Positions 1,419-16,117 of a stretch of DNA of 17,689 bases are shown here, one piece after another. Under the pieces are notes generated by a model. It saw only the letters and a program-made list of their open reading frames with translations, was not told the origin of the DNA and made no database searches. Source of the DNA: a virus (taxonomy: Duplodnaviria > Heunggongvirae > Uroviricota > Caudoviricetes); the IMG/VR virus record IMGVR_UViG_2526164690_000042; one strand, given 5' to 3'. How positions within the stretch are numbered: the stretch's first letter is position 1; each line of letters starts with the position of its first letter. A program made the translations under genes and the position numbers.

Positions 1419-2759
1419 TTAAAAATCAGCCTGACTCGGGATCAGTTTTTGCCAGATAACTGAAACGTATTTTGCCTGATAACGGGCGTCATCAAGTGCA
1501 TTATGGCGCTCACCTTCGAATGGAATAGCCGTTCTGGCATCGAAGTCTATGGCTTTCCCCAGCTCAACGATTGTGCGTACATCGCGATCGTTGTAGTAAC
1601 GCCACGGGCAGGGGATCCCCTGCCGTTCGTATGAACGGCGCAAAATCGTGTTATCGAAGTTGGCTCCATTTCCCCAGACCTGAACAAAAAATTCACCGGA
1701 GTTTTCGTCGATAAATTCCCGCAATTGTAACAGTGCATCATCTAACGGGATTTCATCGGTCATAATGGCAGATTGCGCTTCGCGTGATTGCTTAAGCCAC
1801 CATTTAATGGTGTCCCGATCAATGACTCCGCCAGCAGTTTCCAGATCGATAGTCTTACTAAATTCCGGTCCCATATCTCCGGTTTGCGGATCGAAAAATA
1901 TTGCACCTATTGAGATGATCGGGGCATCAGGATTTTTTCCCATGGTTTCAAGGTCGATCATTAGATGGTCACACGTCCTGCTGGTGGATGTGATTTCGTG
2001 ATGACCGTTCACCTTAATTGAGTGATCTGCCGTCTCGCCAGTTTCATTATCGCTATCGTGATGCTGATTGCCGCCAGTGTTCTCCTTGTGTGGATGTTCA
2101 GCGCCTTCCATTTTCTCCGGATCATCTTCCTGAACTTCAACCTGATACTCTTCATCGAATGTTTCCTGGTATGTTGCGTCGCCCATCACCGCGCCACAAT
2201 CAGGGCAGTTGCCGCCGCCGGTCTGACCGCAGGCGGTGCAGGCTTTTTCCACTTCCTGTTGCGCCACTGGTTCAGGCTGTTTCGTTTCTGGCTCGTTTTG
2301 TAACGCATTTGGGCTGTTTTGTTCCGCTTTTTGGTAGTTCCGTTCCGATTCATGCTGGTTCTGGTTTACAGAATCGCGGGTCTGGATCCCCTTAACCCAT
2401 TTCGGATCATTCGGGTCGCTAATCCCTGCAACAAATTCTCCGCGAGAGGCAGCAAGCAACTTATCGGCGTCAGGCTGGCTGATATTGGCTGCCTGCATAA
2501 TTTTGTTTACTTCGTCAGCGGTAACTTTTACCGGCTCTGGTTGTGCGGTCGTGTCAGATGCACCAGTATTTTGTTGTGAACCTGAGTATGTACTGTTTTT
2601 GCGGGCGAAATATTCTTCTTTCGTGATTTCAGTAGCCCCGGCAGCCAGTGCCTTATCCAGACCAGAAAGTTTGTTTGCGCGACCGTATTTTTCGCCATCC
2701 TTGTCGGTGAAGAGGAAGTAGAACGGCCCCTCACGCTCTACAGATGGTTCGACTTCCAC
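1419..2759 (-). CDS. DEDDh-family (DnaQ-like) 3'-5' exonuclease with N-terminal acidic low-complexity region and Cys4 zinc ribbon
   Basis: The C-terminal ~180 aa carry Exo I (MIDLETMG), Exo II ([13 protein letters not shown]) and Exo III ([13 protein letters not shown]) motifs. The N-terminal ~260 aa are Q/E/N/D-rich and include [16 protein letters not shown]. The start overlaps the stop of the upstream gene by about 22 nt. Confidence 0.8.
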
Positions 2760-3889
2760 TTTGCATTCGGTTTTTCGTTGTCCGGAATTGCCGTTTCCAC
2801 TGCATCAGTTTCTGGTACTGGCGACGAGAGAGTATCAGTTGCGCTCTGATTTGTTCCTTCATCTTCAAACACGCCCTTTGTAGTCAGGTATTCAGTAATG
2901 TATTTGTTCAGTGCCACAGGGTCTTTGTGAATGTCGATCGGACGTTCACGGACAAGGCCAAAAATAGTCTGGCGGTCGTAGCGAAGGGCATCAGGCTGTT
3001 TGCGCATTGATGCCGAGATACGCTTCCAGTCTTCGCGGTCGTTGTCGATAACTTCATTTTTTGCCCAGCGATGGATGCTGCCGTCAATGTTTCCGGCATC
3101 CACATCACCAGGCCAGAGAGCGTAGGCCAGTTCGTCATCCAGTGTTTTCCATGTCTGCTTGTATTCGCGATGAATGGCAGCAATGACCGGGCTGATTTTT
3201 CCTGTTGAATTTTCAGTGTGCTGTTGATTGGTTCTGGCGCGGGCGAGATCAACAACAGACGTGTATTTTCCGGTTTCCTTGCGTTCACCTTCGCGACGTT
3301 TTTTCCAGATGCGCATCTCTGCCTGAATTTCGGGCCATTTGGCACCAGGCTTACATTTATGCTTAACCCACCCGATGGCATGCAGCTTAAGCTCCGGATA
3401 CATGGCGTTAACTTCTGGCATTTTCATCAACGCTTCAACGATATGTCCGTCGAATGTTGCCATGTCTTCCTGCAACAATTCCTGTGCGCTAATAACCATA
3501 TCAACGGTGATGTTTTCACATGTGTCGAACTTAACCATGACAGCGTTCTGTACTTCAGGGGCCAGCTTGTCAAAAGTGACGTTCATCGGATCTGATTCAG
3601 TCTCAACCGGAACAAAGGAAGCAGACTCCTCATCCCAGCGGTTTTCCTGCATATATTCAGCATCCCATGAATCGAGGGCAGGGCGGGGTATGCCAGGTTT
3701 ATCCTCGCAGATAATAAATTTATAAGCGCAGTCCTGAGCAGCCGGATAATGTTCCAGGAATTGCCAGTGAAATTTTGCTCGAGCACGGCGTTCGTCGCCA
3801 GCTTCAATAGCTGTGGCTACAGCCACAGCGCCTTCTTCCCTTGTTGCCAGTTCGTCAGGAATGGCGGCGCAAATAAAGACTTTACTCAT
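2738..3889 (-). CDS. Hypothetical phage early-left protein (383 aa), function unknown
   Basis: Long uninterrupted ORF co-oriented with and translationally coupled to the exonuclease gene. No motif I can confidently assign. It sits where a recombination partner (SSAP) is found in lambdoid phages. Confidence 0.7.
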
Positions 3890-3982: not shown

Positions 3983-4174
3983 TTAAAGACCTGCCGGGAT
4001 TTCGATATTATCCTGGTGAATAACTTTATCTACCGGGTAACAGTTACCGGGAATTTTCTGTTCGGTTGCTGCAGTCATACACTCCTGCATTGTCCTGTGA
4101 ACACTGACTGCAATATCAACTGGCTCTCCGGAAACAAGAAAAACTGTCAGAACAAGTGCAAATGCTGTATTCAT
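3983..4174 (-). CDS. Small secreted or membrane-anchored protein (~63 aa) with N-terminal signal-like hydrophobic segment
   Basis: The 81-aa track ORF 3983..4228 is trimmed to the internal Met at 4174, which has an AGGA Shine-Dalgarno about 8 nt upstream and overlaps the upstream gene stop as ATGA. The product begins MNTAFALVLTVFLVSGEP…. Confidence 0.4.
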   Translation of the reverse strand: MNTAFALVLTVFLVSGEPVDIAVSVHRTMQECMTAATEQKIPGNCYPVDKVIHQDNIEIPAGL

Positions 4175-4359
4175 TGCCAGCATCCTTTTTGTATCGGACG
4201 TAAACGGGCCAACATTGAAAGAATGCATATTTTATTTAATAGCTCCCGTTCGTGTTTTCTCTTGTTAATGGCATCTTCAGTAAATACAGGGTTACTGATA
4301 GTGACACCAATTTCAAAACAACCTTCAGACGTATTAACGTTTGGTAATAACGTTTTCAT
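4171..4359 (-). CDS. Small hypothetical protein (~62 aa), translationally coupled to the downstream small ORF
   Basis: The 97-aa track ORF 4171..4464 starts with GTG. The internal ATG at 4359 is preceded by GAGGG about 7 nt upstream, so it is the more plausible start. The product is basic (…KRKHERELLNK…). Confidence 0.35.
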   Translation of the reverse strand: MKTLLPNVNTSEGCFEIGVTISNPVFTEDAINKRKHERELLNKICILSMLARLRPIQKGCWQ

Positions 4360-4848
4360 TATCGCGCCCTCAACAATGAGTTTTGTGATGCGGTGCCTGG
4401 TGCCTCCAGGTGACGTTAACCAGTTAACAACTAACGCCGGATACAGAGAATCCAACCATAACACTGTTTTTGGTTTTAACTGTTCCGCGTGCGCTTAGCC
4501 GCATTCACCGCATCACAAAATTCACTTTAAAAAGGGCGGCAGAGCAGTCACGGAGTAAAACTGATACCGCCAAACGTCACCAGAAAATTGATAACAGAGG
4601 GCGTTGCAGCGGGGTTGTCACTTAAGCGTATGGTCAACCTGACAACCCGGTGTCCTCAACGGGGGAAGGAATAACCCCGCCATACTTACCGCCGCGCCAT
4701 TTCGCGGATTGCCACAACCAGAAGCGCACGGTCGAAGAAATTTAACGACAAGACTTATATGCAAAGGGATCTCGCCGTGCGCTTTCGTGTTATGCCCTGA
4801 CTTTTCAGGGTAAATTAACCTGTGGAAACCTGTTTTTACTGGCGCTAA

Positions 4849-5088
4849 TCAGTTAGCGTTTCTGGCTAACCAGCGATGCGCGGCAGCTTCGGTTTTAAAC
4901 GTTTTACTTTTGGTATACGTCATCGCGGTAAACGTGCCGTCCTGATTGGGAAACACGCCACATACCAGAGATTCGTTGTTGCCAAGCTCGATAGTATCCA
5001 TGCTGACCTCATTTCCCCTTAACGCTGGGGTAGCGGAACTAAAAACCTGCTGCGCTGTTATACAAAGTGTTCCCGCCGTCATGTTCAT
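4849..5088 (-). CDS. Hypothetical protein (79 aa), first gene downstream of the leftward PL-like promoter
   Basis: ORF begins about 95 bp downstream of the predicted leftward promoter at 5183..5211. The product is not arginine-rich, so it is unlikely to be an N-like antiterminator. Confidence 0.5.
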   Translation of the reverse strand: MNMTAGTLCITAQQVFSSATPALRGNEVSMDTIELGNNESLVCGVFPNQDGTFTAMTYTKSKTFKTEAAAHRWLARNAN

Positions 5089-5182
5089 ACGCCTCGGGCT
5101 GGCTACTTAATCCCTGACCACTGCCGGGTAACTCTAGGTATTGCCCTGTATTGTGTGGGACGGGATGGGTTGGTATGGGAAA

Positions 5183-5225
5183 ACTATAGGAAATGCCTAA
5201 TTTCTTGTCAATAGGCTATGCCTAA
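5183..5225 (-). promoter_or_regulatory. Leftward early promoter (PL-like) with overlapping operator (OL-like)
   Basis: Read on the minus strand: -35 TTGACA (plus 5206..5211), 17-nt spacer, -10 TATAGT (plus 5183..5188). The half-site pair ATAGGC-N3-GCCTAA at 5211..5225 abuts the -35. A 20-mer here (tgtcaataggctatgcctaa, 5206..5225) is the exact reverse complement of 5850..5869 on the other side of the repressor gene. Confidence 0.6.
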
Positions 5226-5319
5226 TGATTTGGGTGCGACCTAATAGGTGATGGTTTGTGGGAGAGGTAGTAGGAGTTAACTAACGGGAACTAGGAATTT
5301 CCCGTCGGACCATATAAGT

Positions 5320-5796
5320 TTAAGTTCCTGTCTTGGTGATGTTCTGGCTTTTCCGTTTTGATTCTTGATTTTTCAGATAGTTAGCTACCTTCATTTCCAT
5401 TGCGGCAATGTAGGCGCGAACGTCATGATCAACCCAACTAGGCTCCGTAGCATTTCCAGATAAGAGGAAAGCCACAATTGCTCTTTTTTCATCAGAGGCG
5501 GCTTGATAAAGGCTGTTTATGTCTAAAAGTTCACTTTTTGTATCTGAAGTGGATGGGGTTGGTATGGGGTATTCGTTAAGCCCCCAATGCTCTGGACCAA
5601 CCACATCAGAAAAGAAACGCCATAGTTCTGGAAGTTTGTCTTTACTTATCGAACCTTTCTTAATCCAGTCATGGATTGATGGTGGTTGGACTTTGAAATG
5701 ACGTGCGATTTCCGCCTTTGATTTGACGGCTCCTGATGCAATTTTTTTGTTAATGGCCTGCTCTATCGCTCGGCCTAAGTCTTTACCACTAAGCAT
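5320..5796 (-). CDS. racR: Prophage repressor, RacR-like (HTH, no LexA-type autocleavage domain apparent)
   Basis: 158-aa ORF transcribed divergently from the rightward early genes and flanked by operator/promoter modules. HTH-like segment KAEIARHFKVQPPSIHDWIKKG. An AGGAGA Shine-Dalgarno lies about 9 nt upstream. The sequence matches what I recall of E. coli Rac RacR, unverified. Confidence 0.75.
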   Translation of the reverse strand: MLSGKDLGRAIEQAINKKIASGAVKSKAEIARHFKVQPPSIHDWIKKGSISKDKLPELWRFFSDVVGPEHWGLNEYPIPTPSTSDTKSELLDINSLYQAASDEKRAIVAFLLSGNATEPSWVDHDVRAYIAAMEMKVANYLKNQESKRKSQNITKTGT

Positions 5797-5849
5797 TGCT
5801 TAATAGTCTCCTATGCGCATCGCGTTAGGCAATCCCTACTCTCGAAGCG

Positions 5850-5893
5850 TTAGGCATAGCCTATTGACAATCGCATTAGGCTAAGCCTAATAT
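5850..5893 (+). promoter_or_regulatory. Rightward early promoter (PR-like) with two palindromic operators (OR-like)
   Basis: -35 TTGACA at 5864..5869 and -10 TAATAT at 5888..5893 with an 18-nt spacer. Operators TTAGGC-ata-GCCTAT (5850..5864) and TTAGGC-taa-GCCTAA (5875..5889). An extra half-site TTAGGC lies at 5825..5830. Confidence 0.6.
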
Positions 5894-5920
5894 TATTGTG
5901 TGTTTTTTGGAGTTCATTCG

Positions 5921-6244
5921 ATGAAAAAAGATAACTATTCATTCAAACGAGCTTGTGCTGTTGTCGGTGGGCAATCAGCAATGGCTAGGCTTTTAGGTGT
6001 ATCTCCTCCAAGCGTAAATCAATGGATCAAAGGTGTACGTCAGTTGCCTGCTGAGAGATGTCCTGCGATTGAACGAGCAACAAAAGGTGGTGTCCTGTGT
6101 GAAGAACTTCGTCCTGATGTTGATTGGACATACTTACGACGCTCGTCATGTTATTCGCAGAATATGTCGATGAAGCAACCAAATGACGAAAACGATCATA
6201 CCCGAAGCATCAAGAGGCAAATGATTCATGAAAATCAAACATGA
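5921..6244 (+). CDS. ydaS: Cro/CI-type HTH regulator, YdaS-like
   Basis: ATG at 5921 has GGAG about 7 nt upstream (the track ORF begins earlier at 5900). HTH segment QSAMARLLGVSPPSVNQWIKG. First rightward gene, divergent from the repressor. Resembles Rac YdaS as recalled. Confidence 0.75.
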   Translation: MKKDNYSFKRACAVVGGQSAMARLLGVSPPSVNQWIKGVRQLPAERCPAIERATKGGVLCEELRPDVDWTYLRRSSCYSQNMSMKQPNDENDHTRSIKRQMIHENQT

Positions 6245-6653
6245 GCACATCCGCATGGCGATGAATGCCTGGGCATATCCTGATGGTGAGAAAGTTCCGG
6301 CAGCTGGAATAACCCAGGCTTATTTTGAGTTGGGTATGACGTTCCCAGAACTGTATGACGACAGCCATCCGGAAGCCCTGGCTCGCAATACCCAGAAAAT
6401 TTTCCGCTGGGTAGAGAAAGACACCCCTGATGCAGTTGAAAAAATTCAGGCGTTGTTACCAGCGATCGAAAAGGCAATGCCACCTTTGCTGGTGGCCAGA
6501 ATGCGCAGCCACAGTTCAGCTTATTTTCGGGAGCTGGTGGAGACGCGGGAGCGACTGGTGAGAGACGCTGATGATTTTGTCGCAGTGGCAATCGCCGGTT
6601 TCAATCAGATGAACCGTGGTGGCCCGGCAGGAAATGCTGTGGCAGTGCATTGA
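6228..6653 (+). CDS. ydaT: YdaT-like protein (reported as a toxin or CII-like regulator in Rac)
   Basis: 141-aa ORF overlapping the end of the YdaS-like gene. N-terminus MKIKHEHIRMAMNAWAYPDGEK… matches my recollection of Rac YdaT. Confidence 0.75.
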   Translation: MKIKHEHIRMAMNAWAYPDGEKVPAAGITQAYFELGMTFPELYDDSHPEALARNTQKIFRWVEKDTPDAVEKIQALLPAIEKAMPPLLVARMRSHSSAYFRELVETRERLVRDADDFVAVAIAGFNQMNRGGPAGNAVAVH

Positions 6654-11077: not shown

Positions 11078-11367
11078 CCTGGCCTGAAGCATTCACAACG
11101 GTAGGAATTGCGATGGCGGTGGCGCTGGTGGTGTATTCGATTTGCCACTGGGGATAAAAACGGTTTGCGGGAAAAGGATAGTTAAGTAGAATTGCTGCGG
11201 GTGCTTGAGGCTATCTGCCTCGGGCATGAACACCAACGGCAGATAGAGAAAAGCCCCAGTTAACATTACGCGTCCTGCAAGACGCTTAACATTAATCTGA
11301 GGCTCAATCCATGCTGAACACATGTAGGTTAGCCTCTTACGTGCCGAAAGGCAAGGAGAAGCAGGCT

Positions 11368-11523
11368 ATGAAGCAGCAAAAGGCGATGTTAATCGCCCTG
11401 ATCGTCATCTGTTTAACCGTCATAGTGACGGCACTGGTAACGAGGAAAGACCTCTGCGAGGTGCGAATCCGAACCGGTCAGACGGAGGTCGCTGTCTTCG
11501 TAGACTACGAATCTGAGAAGTAA
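11368..11523 (+). CDS. hok: Hok/Gef-family type I toxin (51 aa membrane peptide)
   Basis: MKQQKAMLIALIVICLTVIVTALVTRKDLCEVRIRTGQTEVAVFVDYESEK parallels Hok (…[37 protein letters not shown]). AAGGAG Shine-Dalgarno upstream. The track ORF starts in frame at 11311, which may be a mok-like leader. Confidence 0.85.
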   Translation: MKQQKAMLIALIVICLTVIVTALVTRKDLCEVRIRTGQTEVAVFVDYESEK

Positions 11524-11987: not shown

Positions 11988-12005
11988 CCGCCCCTGCTTG
12001 TTAAG

Positions 12006-14781: not shown

Positions 14782-14857
14782 GGCCCTTTAGCTCAGTGGT
14801 GAGAGCGAGCGACTCATAATCGCCAGGTCGCTGGTTCAAATCCAGCAAGGGCCACCA
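14782..14857 (+). tRNA. tRNA with CAU anticodon; ileX/ileZ-like (tRNA-Ile2, lysidine-type) rather than tRNA-Met
   Basis: Cloverleaf readable by eye: acceptor GGCCCTT/AAGGGCC, D-arm GCTC…GAGC, anticodon loop CTCATAA, T-arm GCTGG-TTCAAAT-CCAGC, 3' ACCA. Overall sequence is close to what I recall of E. coli ileX. Confidence 0.85.
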
Positions 14858-14967
14858 TCACAAACCGCCATTAGCTTATCAGGAAGAGCAGACGACACCA
14901 TAACAGGGTTGTTGGTGCGGGGGCGGGTCCCCGATGGCGGTCCATTATCGGTATTCTGCGTTGTTAG

Positions 14968-15044
14968 CTCAGCCGGACAGAGCAATTGCCTTCTAAGCAA
15001 TCGGTCAGTGGTTCGACTCCACTACAACGCGCCACACTTATTTT
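14968..15044 (+). tRNA. tRNA-Arg (anticodon UCU, reads AGA/AGG)
   Basis: Acceptor GCGTTGT/ACAACGC, D-arm GCTC…GAGC, anticodon stem ATTGC/GCAAT with loop CTTCTAA, T-arm AGTGG-TTCGACT-CCACT, 3' GCCA. Confidence 0.85.
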
Positions 15045-15636: not shown

Positions 15637-15884
15637 CGGTAAAACTGCGCCTGGCTGTGGCTGCACTCCTGCTGTTTCTGGTGGTGATGGTGGATTTCAC
15701 CAGCAGAATCATGTCGGTGCTGGCGGATGGGGTGCTGGTCTGCGGCATTGTGGTATTGCTGTGGCCGGTGATAAAAAGAACAGCCTGCATAATGCTTGAT
15801 TTTTTTGTTTACTGTTTATTAAAAATACTACTGCATGGTGAATCCCCCTGTGCGGAGGGGCAATCAGCAACCAGGTATATGTGA
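15633..15884 (+). CDS. Small hydrophobic membrane protein coupled to the TerB-like gene
   Basis: GTG start overlaps the TerB-like stop. Two hydrophobic segments (LAVAALLLFLVVMV and GVLVCGIVVLLWPVI). The C-terminal end and exact start are uncertain. Confidence 0.4.
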   Translation: MTVKLRLAVAALLLFLVVMVDFTSRIMSVLADGVLVCGIVVLLWPVIKRTACIMLDFFVYCLLKILLHGESPCAEGQSATRYM

Positions 15885-15966
15885 TAATCGCGGATTCAGG
15901 TGCTGATACTGAATTCACCGGGAGGCACCCGGCACCATGCAAGAAAAAGAATGTGCATGCAAACAT

Positions 15967-15990
15967 GCCCCTCTCCGGAGGGGCTTTTTT
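15967..15990 (+). terminator. Intrinsic terminator (plus strand) ending the TerB-like/membrane unit
   Basis: gcccctc-tccg-gaggggc hairpin followed by tttttt. Confidence 0.6.
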
Positions 15991-15995
15991 ATGGG

Positions 15996-16021
15996 TAAAA
16001 AATGCCCGAATGGGTTCGGGC
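15996..16021 (-). terminator. Candidate minus-strand intrinsic terminator, convergent with the previous one
   Basis: Plus strand aaaaaat-gcccgaa-tggg-ttcgggc. On the minus strand this is a 7-bp hairpin followed by a T-run. Confidence 0.4.
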
Positions 16022-16117
16022 AATAGCATGAGATACTGATATTGTTGTGTTGTTATCGTGTGGATTTTAACCAGGGTTTATCAGGCTGCGCAACTGCGTG
16101 GCCTTTTTTCATTTCTT

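Follow-up and report, generated by a model that had tools for sequence, protein, structure and literature searches.

The region described here lies in a 17,689-nt stretch of viral DNA (the window; IMG/VR record IMGVR_UViG_2526164690_000042), a lambdoid, Rac-like prophage from E. coli of the Shiga-toxin type. At 99.95% identity it matches a prophage that E. coli O111:H11 carries inserted beside potC. The immunity region is lambdoid and of the Rac type (RacR/YdaS/YdaT), and its features are collected in Table 1. The product of racR has the 158 residues that the first-pass annotation gave to the repressor, scores 246.8 bits against the RacR equivalog NF049929 (NCBI curated model, cut-off 200), and is 92% identical to RacR of E. 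coli K-12. Adjacent to racR and divergent from it are ydaS and ydaT, in the gene order found in K-12; the YdaS protein matches the Pfam families YdaS_toxin (3.8e-30) and P22_Cro (1e-8). On the opposite flank all genes occupy the minus strand, running through DUF1391, DicF, dicB, ydfD, an exonuclease, xis and int. The Pfam match to DUF1391 (3.4e-28) covers residues 31–77 of a longer ORF, and DicF scores 76.7 bits against its Rfam model (gathering threshold 48).

Table 1. Genes, operators and promoters of the immunity region, in window coordinates; mismatches are counted against the RacR operator consensus.
Feature	Position	Strand	Basis
DicF small RNA inside leftward operon, followed by dicB and ydfD	4534..4585	-	Rfam RF00039
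DUF1391 (ydaF-like), first gene past leftward promoter	4849..5001	-	Pfam; annotated 50-aa CDS
Leftward early promoter (PL-like), predicted	5183..5211	-	11/12 consensus; conserved -10 columns
OL1, ATAGGA-AAT-GCCTAA	5186..5200		1 mismatch, within one half-site
OL2, ATAGGC-TAT-GCCTAA, fused to leftward -35	5211..5225		0 mismatches
11-bp palindrome ACCTA-A-TAGGT with one half-site-like ATTAGGT	5239..5249		Conserved
racR, 158-aa prophage repressor	5320..5796	-	ORF; NCBIfam equivalog NF049929; annotated in identical E. coli genomes
Lone TTAGGC half-site inside racR	5773..5778	-	Hexamer scan
O4, CTAAGC-ATT-GCTTAA, weak, centred on racR start codon	5789..5803		3 mismatches
O3, TTAGGC-AAT-CCCTAC, imperfect	5825..5839		2 mismatches; alignment
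O2, TTAGGC-ATA-GCCTAT, fused to rightward -35	5850..5864		0 mismatches; aligned to K-12
Rightward early promoter (PR / PydaS)	5864..5893	+	Consensus scan; boxes mapped in K-12
O1, TTAGGC-TAA-GCCTAA, perfect palindrome	5876..5890		0 mismatches
ydaS, Cro-like HTH protein, first gene of rightward operon	5921..6244	+	Pfam; annotation
ydaT, CII-like regulator	6228..6653	+	Pfam YdaT_toxin 7.5e-10; annotation

The repressor gene is flanked by an exact 20-mer, TTAGGCATAGCCTATTGACA, which occurs at 5850–5869 on the plus strand and at 5206–5225 on the minus strand, as had been reported from the letters of the sequence. No further copy was found in the window with up to three mismatches allowed; the 20-mer was absent from 200 shuffles, and none is expected by chance. 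The inverted arms can be extended to 26 nt at 92% identity (5205–5230 and 5845–5870). TTAGGC/GCCTAA hexamers are concentrated here: the window has nine in its 17.7 kb, and positions 5186–5890, 4% of its length, hold seven of them (binomial P = 5e-9). When the published RacR consensus WTAGGC-N3-GCCTAW was used for the scan, all five matches in the window with at most two mismatches were located in the two cassettes, and the operators are spaced 25–26 bp centre to centre. The extra TTAGGC half-sites that the first-pass annotation placed around the 20-mers are present, but they do not stand alone, each forming part of a complete 15-bp operator (5876–5890, 5825–5839 and 5186–5200). Its list of sites also passed over the weak operator at 5789–5803, the lone half-site at 5773–5778 and the conserved half-site-like element at 5239–5249; the sites of the right region number four instead of three. 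A lone half-site matching the one in racR has also been described for the K-12 gene (PMC9638921).

A consensus scan of positions 4700–6300 returned exactly two promoter-like sites, which are the two cassettes, both facing outward from racR. Sites scoring at least 10/12 number three in the whole window, two of them being the cassette promoters; in dinucleotide shuffles of the region, two such sites occurred in 6% and an 11/12 site in 3%. The rightward promoter (10/12) consists of TTGACA at 5864–5869 and TAATAT at 5888–5893 with an 18-bp spacer, and is predicted to start at about 5900. Its leftward counterpart has TTGACA at 5211–5206 and TATAGT at 5188–5183, a 17-bp spacer and a predicted start at about 5176. 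The description of each cassette as an operator fused to an outward-facing TTGACA is borne out, each TTGACA being paired with a good −10 box, and the starts that had been proposed at 5180 and 5900 lie near the predicted ones. The module runs in the order distal operator, TTGACA, linker of 4–5 bp, proximal operator, −10; the distal operator adjoins the −35 box, and the proximal operator covers the spacer, with its outer half-site overlapping the −10. A terminator-like call at 5875–5891 was discarded, as it is the O1 palindrome itself. Another hairpin, at 5283–5306, is a candidate terminator for racR transcripts.

The right cassette aligns base for base with the racR-ydaS region of K-12, so the right half of the finding is already known. 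O1 overlaps the spacer and −10 of the rightward promoter and is the positional homologue of K-12 O1, the first site protected by RacR in DNase I footprints (PMC9638921). O2 sits in the right copy of TTAGGCATAGCCTATTGACA, O3 is the positional homologue of the −35-linked operator in relatives outside E. coli, and O4, whose core is invariant in the alignment, is the counterpart of the K-12 operator over the racR ATG. RacR of K-12 binds the racR-ydaS intergenic DNA in vitro and in vivo, according to EMSA and ChIP, and represses a ydaS GFP reporter (PMC5700373). Primer extension identified one ydaS start in K-12, with −35 TTGACA and −10 TAATAT; mutation of the −10 abolished promoter activity, and DNase I footprints of RacR appeared on the ydaS promoter at the lowest concentrations (PMC9638921). 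The same study gave the operator consensus as (T/A)TAGGC-n3-GCCTA(T/A) and placed one operator over the racR ATG (PMC9638921). The K-12 sites have further been described as four inverted repeats and RacR as octameric (PMC11014345), and PydaST as a promoter with an 18-bp spacer and very high strength (PMC11879457). From near-identity to the K-12 system, we infer that RacR also binds the right sites of the window and represses the promoter there.

On the left, OL2 sits in the other copy of TTAGGCATAGCCTATTGACA and is kept as TTAGGCATAGCCTAT next to racR homologues in several genera, while OL1 overlaps the spacer and −10 of the leftward promoter and lies at a constant 25 bp from OL2 in relatives. 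The palindrome at 5239–5249 is a candidate for a weak third left site; CATCACCTATTAGG is retained between variable flanks at 38 distinct E. coli-type loci. A canonical third left operator was rejected, as the best 15-mer (5230–5244) has three mismatches and only one conserved half-site. K-12 Rac has an equivalent left cassette between racR and ydaG, and the left and right K-12 copies are one base apart, in the operator spacer.

Searches of the literature, including searches by operator sequence strings, found no description of a left operator-promoter of RacR, and nothing relevant on looping or a left operator with this repressor. The RacR regulon, ydaFG operon included, has been stated not to be characterised in detail (PMC11014345). 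Lowering RacR raises ydaF and ydaG about 40-fold and kilR, ydaC and ralA more than 70-fold (PMC6765115), and xisR and intR about 100-fold (PMC11014345). This published leftward derepression fits a RacR-controlled leftward promoter and may be partly indirect. In K-12 (NC_000913.3) the equivalent starts are predicted at about 1,419,619 on the minus strand (leftward) and about 1,420,346 on the plus strand (rightward). The accessible part of a Cappable-seq supplement (PMC4782308) shows no start at the predicted coordinates, under conditions where the promoter is expected to be repressed. Matches to TTAGGC in the Reg-Seq paper were dismissed as operator evidence, being primers only, and the paper on OxyS and kilR does not mention the promoter. 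Sequence, conservation and the published expression data together point to a left promoter with RacR bound at OL1 and OL2. This left half is so far undescribed, as far as the literature was searched, but unsurprising.

Comparison across genomes bears on both cassettes. A scan of genomes with the RacR protein yielded 12 loci, and a pattern scan of viral contigs yielded 120. Homologues of the window RacR were found in E. coli and E. ruysiae (91–92% identity), Achromobacter (77–78%, over the N-terminal domain only), Nitrosomonas (69%), Aeromonas (65%), Mixta (64%), Klebsiella (63%), Proteus (61%) and a proteobacterial MAG (58%). In 72 of the 120 viral contigs, outward-facing pairs lie 643–647 bp apart around a racR of at least 91% identity. 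Distinct modules beside RacR homologues amount to 57 of left type and 72 of right type, with repressor identity ranging from 100% to about 32%. All of them have the form ATTAGGC-N3-GCCTA-TTGACA, a linker of 4–5 bp, and (A)TTAGGC-N3-(G)CCTA, with a −10 overlapping the last half-site; the half-sites, TTGACA and −10 are kept, and the N3 spacers, linkers and flanks vary. In the left modules the proximal operator and −10 are among the most conserved columns, though neither was used in selection. In some lineages intervening DNA puts the left module, unchanged in form, at 0.75–2.3 kb downstream from the repressor gene, which recalls the position of rexAB between lambda cI and OL. The RacR segment that includes residues 38–47, predicted by the authors of the K-12 work to be the DNA-contacting α3 helix (PMC11014345), is nearly invariant across homologues, and in these alignments it appears as the protein-side match of the invariant half-site. 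The conservation on both sides reads as the phylogenetic footprint of a functional operator-promoter.

The same alignments suggest how the two 20-mers came to be identical. Relatives outside E. coli have three sites in the right region, of which the −35-linked one, TTAGGCAATTCCTA, lies 38–40 nt from the racR ATG; the −35-linked site on the left is TTAGGCATAGCCTA or near it in several of these lineages. The right −35 box of the E. coli lineage is 65 nt from the ATG, one 25–26-bp operator unit farther. There the old site persists as O3 (TTAGGCAATCCCTAC), without a −35, and the new −35-linked right site carries left-type sequence. Because the old site has been kept as O3 and the new one is of left type, the exact mirror 20-mer is a derived trait of E. 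coli-type Rac phages. The simplest account would be that an operator unit was gained, for which the left cassette may have been the template. The 20-mers are identical on both sides in 38 of 58 distinct paired regions. Concerted evolution of the two was considered and rejected, as the differences are confined to the N3 spacer; these changes look independent, and there is thus no sign of ongoing conversion.

We therefore regard it as very probable that the two cassettes are the OL/PL-like and OR/PR (PydaS) operator-promoter regions of a Rac-type prophage, under shared repression by RacR. RacR dimers would bind the 15-bp operators WTAGGC-N3-GCCTAW, and occupation of O1 with O2 and of OL1 with OL2 would cover the −35, spacer and −10 of both early promoters and exclude RNA polymerase. 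Given the 25–26-bp distance between site centres, binding is probably cooperative. The rightward operon (ydaS-ydaT and replication genes) would be kept silent in this way, as would the leftward operon of DUF1391, DicF, dicB, ydfD, exonuclease, xis and int. The stretch from O2 to the racR start codon contains O3 and O4, which lie over the racR promoters and would provide autoregulation. The idea that one repressor shuts both early promoters thus finds support in the right-side experiments in K-12, the consensus match on the left, the conservation and the leftward derepression. To call the locus a compact immunity switch, as the first-pass annotation did, is a fair description, but there is nothing special in it, the layout being the standard lambdoid one.

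Three other explanations were weighed for the cassettes. The left cassette could be a real promoter controlled by YdaS, or by YdaS and YdaT, rather than by RacR, with leftward derepression following indirectly through these proteins. There is precedent for this in CP-933P, where a PL-type promoter is repressed both by the repressor and by YdaS (PMC8630535), and K-12 YdaS has been said to compete with RacR for its operators (PMC11014345); the case for RacR binding on the left is, moreover, indirect. With zero and one mismatches, the left sites are nevertheless no poorer fits to the RacR consensus than the footprinted right sites, and left and right sites alike keep one invariant half-site in every lineage, together with the near-invariant segment predicted to bind DNA in RacR. 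Since shared binding of YdaS would be an addition to control by RacR and not a replacement for it, we consider control by YdaS instead of RacR unlikely. It could also be argued that the left cassette is a dead relic, left by duplication or inversion of the right cassette and devoid of any regulatory role. In favour are the 20 nt over which the copies do not differ and, in the E. coli lineage, the resemblance of the extra right operator unit to the left one, from which it follows that sequence has moved or been copied at some time. A relic is nonetheless hard to reconcile with a left module that persists in Mixta, Proteus, Achromobacter and metagenomic phages, beside RacR homologues of as little as about 32% identity, with half-sites and hexamers conserved and spacers free to vary. 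The cassette also has a distinct −10 of its own (TATAGT, with a 17-bp spacer) and faces the string of genes that is derepressed when RacR falls, which makes this explanation very improbable.

The palindromes might, finally, act in RNA, as hairpins of terminators or processing sites, and not as operators bound by protein. Positions 5875–5891 do resemble a terminator, having a 7-bp stem and, after it, a T-rich tail. That hairpin is O1, however, which lies upstream of the ydaS start, both as predicted and as mapped in K-12, and is therefore absent from the rightward RNA. In the K-12 footprint RacR protects O1 DNA (PMC9638921), and the half-sites are invariant rather than covarying. A role as RNA hairpins is accordingly scarcely credible, and we retain shared repression by RacR at two operator-promoter regions as the preferred reading.

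For this arrangement, the centres of OL2 and O2 are 639 bp apart in the window. K-12 RacR is an octamer in solution according to size-exclusion chromatography, and its authors assigned the octamer to the four racR-ydaS sites, not to a loop (PMC11014345). Because K-12 RacR is an octamer, OL and OR could plausibly be bridged, closing a loop of about 640 bp; as a conjecture, one octamer may join OL1–OL2 to O1–O2 and loop out the DNA that bears racR. That the octamer serves as such a lambda-style bridge, and not as four dimers on the right sites, is in our judgement a serious possibility that falls somewhat short of likely. Under the same tentative bridge, repression of both promoters would be coupled with autoregulation of racR, and the OL2-type unit on the right would be an addition of the E. 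coli lineage, perhaps copied from the left. Helical phasing of the OL–OR distance is not conserved across genera, in which the distance is 614–641 bp and, in some, 0.75–2.3 kb.

At the level of the protein, no Pfam family matched the 158-aa repressor (E ≤ 0.01), neither S24 peptidase nor a helix-turn-helix domain, and a sequence search found no relative in the PDB. In the absence of a Pfam S24 domain, induction by lambda-style RecA cleavage cannot be assumed for RacR. A CI-like five-helix N-domain has been reported for RacR from structure prediction, and its C-terminal domain is reported to have a fold other than that of lambda CI (PMC11014345). RacR works like lambda CI at the DNA level and belongs outside the CI/LexA-like protein family.

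The system as a whole is of a known kind, a lambdoid two-operator switch with OL/PL and OR/PR in a Rac-type module. As in lambda, the repressor gene is divergent from a cro-like gene, multipartite operators overlap two outward early promoters that flank the repressor gene, the strongest site is closest to the −10, and the repressor forms octamers. Lambda-type architecture also calls for a second set of operators, over a leftward early promoter beyond the repressor gene, and sequence and conservation indicate such a set here. Operator centres are 25–26 bp apart in the window and 23–24 bp apart in lambda, and unlike those of lambda the RacR operators are 15 bp long and have another sequence. OL and OR are separated by about 640 bp in the window, compared with about 2.3 kb in lambda (2317 bp in PMC2685085). 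YdaS, unlike its lambda counterpart, has been reported not to repress racR (PMC9638921).

A close parallel is the switch of CP-933P (PaaR2, YdaS and YdaT; PR933P, PRM933P and PL933P), likewise a lambdoid region with YdaS/YdaT, in which the same octameric regulator represses both promoters (PMC8630535). Its repressor PaaR2 is unrelated to RacR, its operators are 18-bp palindromes of the GTTTAGTAA type, and, unlike the window, it has a toxin-antitoxin pair separating the repressor gene from PL (PMC8630535). The leftward operon of the window, with DicF, dicB and ydfD, resembles that of Qin; the repressor and operators are of RacR type in the window, while the Qin dicBF operon is under DicA/DicC control (PMC10448788). 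With K-12 Rac the window shares the repressor family, the operator consensus, the TTGACA/TAATAT boxes with their 18-bp spacer, and the four-site right region including the site at the racR ATG; K-12 has the left cassette too, apart from one difference in a spacer. Publications on K-12 Rac describe only the racR-ydaS intergenic sites (PMC5700373, PMC9638921, PMC11014345, PMC11879457). The leftward operons differ, being Qin-like in the window (DUF1391, DicF, dicB, ydfD) and ydaG-ydaF-kilR in K-12 Rac. What may be new is therefore modest: the left operator, a possible OL–OR octamer loop of about 640 bp, and the extra operator unit of the E. coli lineage.

E. coli K-12 has few essential transcription factors, of which RacR is one, and loss of RacR releases toxic prophage genes on both flanks of racR. 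The published explanation covers the right side only (ydaS/ydaT). A defined left operator-promoter would explain directly how division inhibitors of the kilR/dicB type, recombination genes and xis/int come to be derepressed 40–100-fold, and would give a concrete way to ask whether the RacR octamer loops DNA. The general understanding of phage switches is unchanged by the finding. The simple motif could be used to find RacR-type immunity regions in many enterobacterial and other proteobacterial prophages; among complete E. coli genomes, 1085 of 5426 contain the 1.2-kb core at a coverage of at least 80%.

Downstream of the predicted left promoter lies an operon whose members include the DicF small RNA, dicB and ydfD, and this arrangement is putative RacR-type control of a Qin-like dicBF cell-division-inhibitor module. 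The cryptic Rac prophage of E. coli K-12, in contrast, has a ydaG-ydaF-kilR string where the window has the dicBF module. Coordinates of these and other features are summarized in the table.

RNA features, genes and promoter-like site in the window
Feature	Position	Strand	Basis
ydfD	3983-4174	-	
dicB	4171-4359	-	
DicF small RNA	4534-4585	-	Rfam, 76.7 bits
Leader of predicted leftward transcript (~175 nt), up to the DUF1391 gene	5001-5176	-	
Hairpin, 8-bp stem GACGGGAA/UUCCCGUU	5283-5306	-	
sok antitoxin RNA, adjoining hok/gef gene	11199-11373	+	Rfam
Sigma-70 promoter-like site, TTAACA, 18 bp, AATAAT	12004	-	Consensus score
tRNA, 3' of Q-like antiterminator gene	14782-14854	+	Rfam
tRNA, 3' of Q-like antiterminator gene	14958-15031	+	Rfam
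sRNA STnc100	15807-15996	+	Rfam
AgvB, anti-GcvB sRNA	15997-16058	-	Rfam

The leader separating this promoter from its first gene is kept in K-12 Rac. Within its initial 50 nt, C is abundant (19) and G scarce (6), a bias common in Rho-utilisation sites. A small ORF (MNMTAG...) starts at 5088; its K-12 counterpart has the same start and ends after 20 codons.

On the other side of the left promoter, a hairpin stands directly 3' of the racR stop codon. It may terminate racR transcription and thereby shield the left promoter, which points the same way. One compensatory change (G:C to A:T) was found in its stem in K-12. The U tract following the hairpin is weak, and the hairpin region taken as a whole folds no better than its shuffles (z = -1.1).

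Between the hairpin and the left promoter, the sequence CATCACCTATTAGG(T) at 5236-5249 is kept across 38 distinct E. coli-type loci, with flanks that are variable on both sides. It contains the palindrome ACCTA-A-TAGGT together with one RacR-like half-site; we rejected it as a canonical RacR operator, and it could represent a third left site made up of a half-site only, or the site of another protein. The 13-mer GGGTTGGTATGGG is present as two exact direct repeats: one copy lies at the predicted start of the leftward transcript (5167-5179), the other within racR (5556-5568). The two copies are less similar to each other in K-12 than in the window, and the duplication may be due to chance.

Outside the window, the Aeromonas MAG locus L014 carries a right-hand module (2380-2450) adjoining a RacR homologue that is short and 65% identical over 79 aa. 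The TTGACA element is retained, the operators are degenerate (CTAGGCAATTCCGAA and GATCGGCTGGCCTAC), and no left module was seen at this locus; the module may be a decaying copy or reflect shifted specificity.

Elsewhere in the window, the site at 12004 is the sole sigma-70 match of at least 10/12 besides the two cassette promoters. The exonuclease gene (1419-3889, minus strand) is split between reading frames, with one ORF at 1419-2759 and a second at 2738-3889. In the 99.95%-identical E. coli O111:H11 genome it is a single intact CDS of 823 aa, and the split is the result of a frameshift or sequencing indel.
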